A stretch of 63,088 bases of DNA, filler included, from Squatina squatina (taxonomy: Eukaryota), in the NCBI GenBank assembly GCA_031763465.1. It is 4 parts of 4 records of this genome, joined end to end, with 100 filler letters (N's around TTAATTAATTAA, not from the genome) between each part and the next. Parts side by side here need not be neighbours in the genome. Positions count along the whole stretch, not along the records: positions 1 to 16,884 come from JARFOE010000219.1; 3 more parts are not named here. One strand, written 5' to 3'. Position 1 is the first letter of the stretch, and each line of letters starts with the position of its first letter. The notes under the pieces are model-generated. The model saw nothing but the letters and a program-made list of their open reading frames with translations. It did not search any database and was not told the DNA's origin. The translations under genes were made by a program, and so were the position numbers. This document shows positions 4,611 to 5,593 of the stretch, one piece after another.

Positions 4611-5593
4611 CTGCAGGTCTGATCATTGGGAAGGGTGGTGCCACAGTGAAAGCTGTCATGGAGCAGTCAGGAGCTTGGGTACAACTCTCTCAAAAGCCAG
4701 ACGGGATCAACTTGCAAGAGAGAGTGGTGACGGTGAGTGGGGAACCTGAACAAAACCGCAAAGCCGTCGAACTTATCATCCAGAAAATCCAGGAGGACCC
4801 ACAGAGTGGCAGCTGTCTTAATATCAGCTATGCCAATGTCACTGGTCCAGTGGCCAACTCCAACCCAACTGGATCCCCTTATGCCAACACTGCTGAGGTG
4901 TTACCAACTGCTGCGGCTGCTGCGGGGCTGTTAGGACACGCTAACCTCGCTGGAGTCGCCGCCTTCCCAGCGGTTTTATCCGGCTTCACAGGAAATGACC
5001 TGGTAGCCATCACCTCTGCACTCAACACTTTAGCCAGCTATGGATATAATCTTAACACACTGGGTTTGGGCTTGAGTCAAGCTGCAGCCCCGGGTGCATT
5101 GGCTGCAGCCGCAGCCAGTGCAAATCCCGCCGCAGCAGCCGCAGCAAACCTACTGGCTACATATGCGAGTGAAGCCTCGGGTGGTGGCAGCCCTGTTGGT
5201 GGAACAGCGGGGACATTTGCCCTAGGTAGCCTTGCTGCTGCTACTGCTGCCACAAACGGCTATTTCGGTGCTGCCTCTCCACTGGCTGCCAGTGCCATCC
5301 TTGGCTCAGAAAAATCTCCAGATGGATCAAAGGACGTGGTCGAAATAGCGGTCCCAGAAAACCTAGTTGGTGCAATATTGGGGAAAGGCGGGAAAACATT
5401 AGTGGAATATCAGGAGTTGACTGGTGCAAGGATACAGATCTCCAAAAAGGGGGAGTTTGTGCCTGGCACAAGGAATCGGAAGGTGACCATTACAGGAACG
5501 CCAGCTTCTACCCAGGCTGCCCAGTATTTAATCACACAGCGGATCACTTATGAGCAAGGTGTTCGGGCAGCCAACCCACAGAAAGTCGGGTGA
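4611..5593 (+). CDS. NOVA1: NOVA1 last coding exon (KH2, Ala-rich linker, KH3); its 5' end lies in the gap
   Basis: GLIIGKGG and [10 protein letters not shown] loops, ending ...[13 protein letters not shown] with TGA at 5591-5593. Residues [21 protein letters not shown] and GEFVPG match NOVA1 rather than NOVA2. Confidence 0.98.

Follow-up and report, generated by a model that had tools for sequence, protein, structure and literature searches.

Valine at residue 197 of an elasmobranch NOVA1, the site of the human I197V change

The NOVA1 locus in the window

The window analysed here is a 63,088-nt stretch of the Squatina squatina assembly, composed of 4 parts of 4 records joined end to end with 100-N filler between parts, and parts that stand side by side are not necessarily genomic neighbours. 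Positions 1–16,884 come from JARFOE010000219.1 and hold two exons of NOVA1 on the plus strand. The upstream exon (2084–2250, with an acceptor AG at 2082–2083 and a donor GT at 2251) covers the latter half of KH1 and continues as far as PDRIKQ; it agrees with elasmobranch NOVA1 at 54 of 55 residues and is present, together with its intron, in 4/4 related runs at 95–99% identity. The last coding exon, visible at 4611–5593, carries most of KH2, an Ala-rich linker and KH3, in a frame that is free of stops from 4613 to 5590 and closed by TGA at 5591–5593. This exon is 98% identical to those of Chiloscyllium and Heterodontus NOVA1, and shark NOVA1 proteins were the top matches of the homolog search. 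Its 5′ end (~25 nt) probably falls in the N gap at 4511–4610; positions 4611–4616 are coding sequence and not a splice acceptor. KH2 and KH3 are present with their GKGG loops, and of KH1 the second half alone lies within the window. The stretch after the stop codon, as far as the next gap (5594–6123, plus strand), is by its place the putative start of the 3′ UTR, and no repeats were found in it.

KH2 residues 185–246 are encoded at 4619–4804 (plus strand), and the 62 residues read from 4619 align gap-free to the Nova-1 KH2 of PDB 2ANN, which together with 2ANR covers the domain. Positions 4646–4660 read GTG AAA GCT GTC ATG (V-K-A-V-M), with the Val codon GTC at 4655–4657 on the plus strand, six residues past the KH2 GKGG loop. 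2ANN has Ile in this column, which is residue 197 in the 507- and 508-residue NOVA1 records (V197 in Amblyraja, I197 in Latimeria and Anolis). A sequence-only reading of this DNA had proposed both the codon and its position at the human I197V (I200V) site; the former is borne out by the assembly sequence and the open frame, the latter by both alignments.

The scaffold is gappy, with 49 N-gaps in 63 kb, and just 45 bases separate the Val codon from the edge of a contig. The assembly shows four private amino acid changes: V at 2146 (HSVIAE), P5090, P at 5318 (KSPDG) and S5507. They may be assembly errors or the mark of a fast lineage, and Val 197 is not among them. The first is an F-to-V change at 2146–2148 (plus strand), recognized by comparison with elasmobranch NOVA1 and related runs, and position 2146 is T, the usual base, in 4/4 of those runs. 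The change at 2146 is a first-position transversion relative to the four runs, and the other three private changes appear alike by codon.

Elsewhere in the window, domain matches identified a DUF4628 frame (18703–19290, plus strand), a protein kinase frame (21049–21426, minus strand) and two RGS-domain exons (30817–31113 and 32085–32396, plus strand), which lie 13–27 kb past NOVA1 in window coordinates and are not FOXG1 or STXBP6, the expected neighbours of NOVA1. We take them to resemble C1orf226, UHMK1 and RGS4/5, a block on human 1q23. These non-NOVA1 neighbours likely stem from a false scaffold join, and synteny therefore speaks neither for nor against NOVA1 orthology. A LINE-like reverse-transcriptase fragment (13854–14348, minus strand, domain match), a Myb/SANT-like frame (57397–57786, plus strand, domain match), presumably of Harbinger type, and a weak GDSL-like match below the cut-off (24049–24309, minus strand) are mobile-element debris.

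Assignment to NOVA1 and the teleost Nova-1 labels

In a FastTree phylogeny of 80 sequences, from which the residue 197 column was left out, the window protein groups with six elasmobranch NOVA1 proteins (support 0.974), inside the NOVA1 clade (0.904) and apart from NOVA2 (0.997). Forcing it into NOVA2 in a set of 31 sequences was rejected by the AU test (p = 0.0034) and not by the SH test (p = 0.073), both run with 2000 replicates and a fast constrained search; in the corresponding tree the bootstrap was low for the NOVA1 clade (25) and 100 for the NOVA2 clade. Of 27 columns at which 12 NOVA1 and 10 NOVA2 proteins are set apart, the window is NOVA1-type at 21, NOVA2-type at none and of another type at one, with 5 uncovered. 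NOVA2 shares the KH architecture of the window protein, but its diagnostic residues are absent from the window. The RefSeq NOVA1 proteins of Chiloscyllium punctatum, Heterodontus francisci, Hemitrygon akajei and Amblyraja radiata are the same as the window at 316–320 of 324 last-exon residues and share with it Val 197, the S in KH1 and the GGGS linker; they differ from it in the four private changes (codons 2146, 5090, 5318 and 5507), which are possibly errors. S2143, the GGGS linker and S5306 of the window are common to elasmobranchs and differ from human.

By these sequence comparisons the window gene is a shark-or-ray NOVA1, not human DNA. The earlier identification of the gene as NOVA1 is upheld by the FastTree placement, the AU test and 21 of the 22 covered diagnostic columns, and grouping with NOVA2, which it had named as a refuting outcome, is seen neither in the trees nor at any diagnostic residue. 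The residues that it had put forward against human contamination fared unevenly: elasmobranchs too have the S of HSVIAE, GGGSP and GSEK, which argue against a human origin, whereas the V of HSVIAE and the P of KSPDG are private to the assembly and, being possibly errors, are not trustworthy as marks.

The same diagnostic columns bear on the teleost records. All nine clupeocephalan proteins labelled Nova-1 or Nova-1-like (P0062, P0058, P0068, P0075, P0065, P0061, P0063, P0056 and P0107) are NOVA2-type, at 21–26 of the 27 columns, and forcing five clupeocephalan "Nova-1" proteins into NOVA1 was strongly rejected in the 31-sequence topology tests. Among the matches listed (the best 120 of 677, 474 and 947, with at most 15 per cluster), true teleost NOVA1 was found in tarpon, bonefish and mormyrids only and no NOVA1-type clupeocephalan protein was present, suggesting that NOVA1 may have been lost in most teleosts. 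Zebrafish nova1 is treated as NOVA1 in the accessible parts of PMC2014790 and PMC12521581. As the labelled clupeocephalan proteins are NOVA2-type and the true teleost NOVA1 proteins (Megalops and two mormyrids) have Ile, the reported convergence of teleosts and humans on Val is likely a paralog effect.

Distribution of Val and Ile and direction of change

Residue 197 was compared over 40 NOVA1 rows picked from fetched records (39 named genera and the window), in which it is Val in 20 and Ile in 20. Val is found in every elasmobranch examined, namely the window and 6/6 other genera (Chiloscyllium, Heterodontus, Scyliorhinus, Mustelus, Amblyraja and Hemitrygon), in 3/3 salamander genera (Lissotriton, Pleurodeles and Ambystoma) and in all nine frog genera. 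Ile is found in coelacanth, lungfish, bichir, reedfish, sturgeon, paddlefish, bowfin, gar, tarpon and two mormyrids, in the caecilian and in all non-human amniotes seen, including Pan. Val thus occurs in 19 of the 39 non-human rows and, among the amniotes seen, in Homo only; across these records, Val 197 is not unique to modern humans. The surrounding domain hardly varies, as 58 of the 62 columns of KH2 185–246 are invariant over the 40 rows and the seven elasmobranchs and three salamanders are the same as modern human at 62/62 residues. The window and the modern human I197V protein (PMC11836289, as far as accessible) carry the same residue in the same column of an identical KH2, with different codons, GTC in the window and GTA in humans, and a separate origin is likely. 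Holocephalan NOVA1, amphioxus and named tunicates were all absent from the matches listed (the best 120 of 677, 474 and 947, with at most 15 per cluster, for example 15 of 240).

The sequence-only reading had given NOVA2 as Val, which is correct for mammals (human and mouse NOVA2 have Val in the accessible text of PMC11836289) and for the elasmobranchs and teleosts compared here, but Val is not uniform in this paralog: coelacanth, lungfish, gar, reedfish, sturgeons and reptiles, that is, non-mammalian, non-teleost bony vertebrates, have Ile. Met occupies the column in the lamniform NOVA2 of basking and white shark (P0051) and in the named lamprey and hagfish NOVA records with the motif (P0416, P0417 and P0418), and the cyclostome-like protein P0283 has Ile. 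Among distant relatives, the 119 of 148 sequences assigned to KH2 comprise 88 Ile, 15 Leu, 8 Val, 4 Phe, 3 Met and 1 Tyr, and 7 of the 8 with Val are vertebrate-type; sea urchin, abalone, mite and sandfly have Ile.

Steps were counted on a species-constrained tree of the 80 sequences. The minimum is 9, with Ile at the jawed- and bony-vertebrate NOVA1 nodes; forcing Val at the vertebrate or the jawed-vertebrate node raises the count to 10, at the bony-vertebrate or the tetrapod NOVA1 node to 11, and at the amniote node to 12. A hand count without three unnamed rows gives 7 steps for Ile against 8 for Val, and dropping the invertebrates as well gives 7 against 7, so that the single step by which Ile is preferred at the jawed-vertebrate node rests on the invertebrates. 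These counts plainly indicate that human Val arose from an Ile long held by bony vertebrates. For the jawed-vertebrate node they disfavour an ancestral Val, and the elasmobranch Val leans towards gain rather than retention. Between the two possibilities raised earlier for the human change, reversion or convergence, the latter is the better supported and the former the weaker (Ile takes 9 steps, against 11 for Val at the bony-vertebrate node and 10 at the jawed-vertebrate node). Convergence is favoured by Ile in the NOVA1 of non-teleost bony fishes, coelacanth, lungfish and caecilian, in the NOVA2 of non-mammalian, non-teleost bony vertebrates and in the invertebrate relatives. It carries the caveat that both elasmobranch paralogs have Val and both non-teleost bony-fish paralogs Ile, a pattern that two parallel Val-to-Ile changes fit almost as well; the cyclostome Met is one base from either residue.

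Origin and significance of the valine

Published statements on this residue differ. In the accessible text of PMC11836289, Val at 197 is called unique to modern humans and swept, and a bioRxiv preprint, in the portion available, describes it as human-unique among simians. A VGP Phase I preprint of 2026 (PMC13320880), as far as its text could be consulted, reports Val in all frogs and "all teleosts", and thus not unique to humans, and its absence from other amphibians and other fishes; it gives the codon as GTA in humans and frogs and suggests testing the frog and teleost Val for a vocal link. The RefSeq NOVA1 records of horn shark, thorny skate and Pleurodeles (in its contributor list), in contrast to the distribution given in that part of PMC13320880, have Val. 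We found no paper stating that shark or salamander NOVA1 has Val, in covered literature that lies mostly outside subscription journals, and the 12 of 19 supplements of PMC11836289 that were covered make no mention of shark, Xenopus, zebrafish or valine. What these public records add, partly anticipated by the preprint, is that elasmobranchs and salamanders join the list of Val carriers and that a likely teleost paralog mix-up is exposed, a modest but useful correction.

Our preferred reading, which we consider probable, is that the window holds an ordinary elasmobranch NOVA1 whose Val 197, common to all elasmobranch, salamander and frog records examined, likely goes back to an earlier Ile, in an event separate from the human change. 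A single A/G substitution in the first base of the codon interconverts Ile and Val. Residue 197 would be a buried position of the KH2 core that tolerates the loss of one methyl group, and the exchange a conservative, near-neutral toggle. At least three Ile-to-Val shifts would have occurred in NOVA1 (in elasmobranchs, in frogs plus salamanders, and in modern humans) and three in NOVA2 (in elasmobranchs, teleosts and mammals), with Met arising in the named cyclostome records and the lamniform NOVA2. The shark protein, nearly identical to its mammalian counterpart, is on that ground predicted to regulate neuronal splicing in the normal way, as a YCAY-binding protein with three KH domains. According to the accessible text of PMC11836289, the residue lies in the KH2 hydrophobic core, the I197V swap leaves RNA specificity and affinity unchanged, and humanised mice show some splicing and vocal changes, which indicates that in mammals the exchange falls short of strict neutrality.

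The main rival to this independent gain would make Val ancestral in jawed-vertebrate NOVA1 and NOVA2, with both paralogs turning to Ile on the bony-fish stem, sharks keeping Val, and the human, frog and salamander Val being returns. We regard it as unlikely, though it has points in its favour: both elasmobranch paralogs have Val, it costs a single extra step (10 against 9) and ties among named vertebrates alone in the hand count, and the Val-to-Met change seen in P0051 could also account for the cyclostome Met. Against it stand the invertebrate relatives, overwhelmingly Ile, and the Ile of P0283. Even if it were true, the human allele would be new, from an Ile that dates back to the bony-vertebrate ancestor, and "reversion" would thus be a label and not a matter of descent. 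A composite version is likewise unlikely: Val turned to Ile in NOVA1 and NOVA2 on the bony-fish stem and later returned in frogs, salamanders, teleosts, mammals and humans; most teleosts, zebrafish included, lack a true NOVA1; their "nova1" is a NOVA2 duplicate; and teleost–human convergence is a paralog mix-up.

That Val was repeatedly selected where vocal or motor circuits were elaborated is very improbable. Sharks, rays and salamanders, all largely non-vocal, have Val; Ile was found in the birds and the bat examined; and teleost Val sits in NOVA2-type genes, true teleost NOVA1 being Ile. The points on its side are that frogs and humans have Val and vocalise and that mice with Val alter their calls (PMC11836289 and PMC13320880, each as far as accessible). 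Taken together, Val in largely silent groups, Ile in true teleost NOVA1 and the NOVA2 identity of teleost "Nova-1" weaken the vocal link. Least credible of all is an artefact, be it an error of assembly at the Val codon, contamination with human DNA or a NOVA2 gene under the wrong label. The gaps, the nearby contig edge, the four other private changes and a GTC known from the assembly alone would allow it, but Val recurs in all six other elasmobranch genera, GTC is not the human GTA, elasmobranch-type residues are found elsewhere in both exons, and no NOVA2-type diagnostic residue is present.

I197V is a headline "modern-human-specific" change tied to vocal communication, and its distribution indicates that Val alone does not signify speech. 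Neither the human sweep nor the mouse phenotype is disputed; they are reframed as concerning a change at a readily toggling site, the residue that varies most in a domain otherwise nearly fixed. Frogs, salamanders and catsharks provide natural Val backgrounds for tests. The frog NOVA1 proteins carry, in all nine genera, a second Ile-to-Val change in KH2, at residue 238, which is absent in salamanders and humans.
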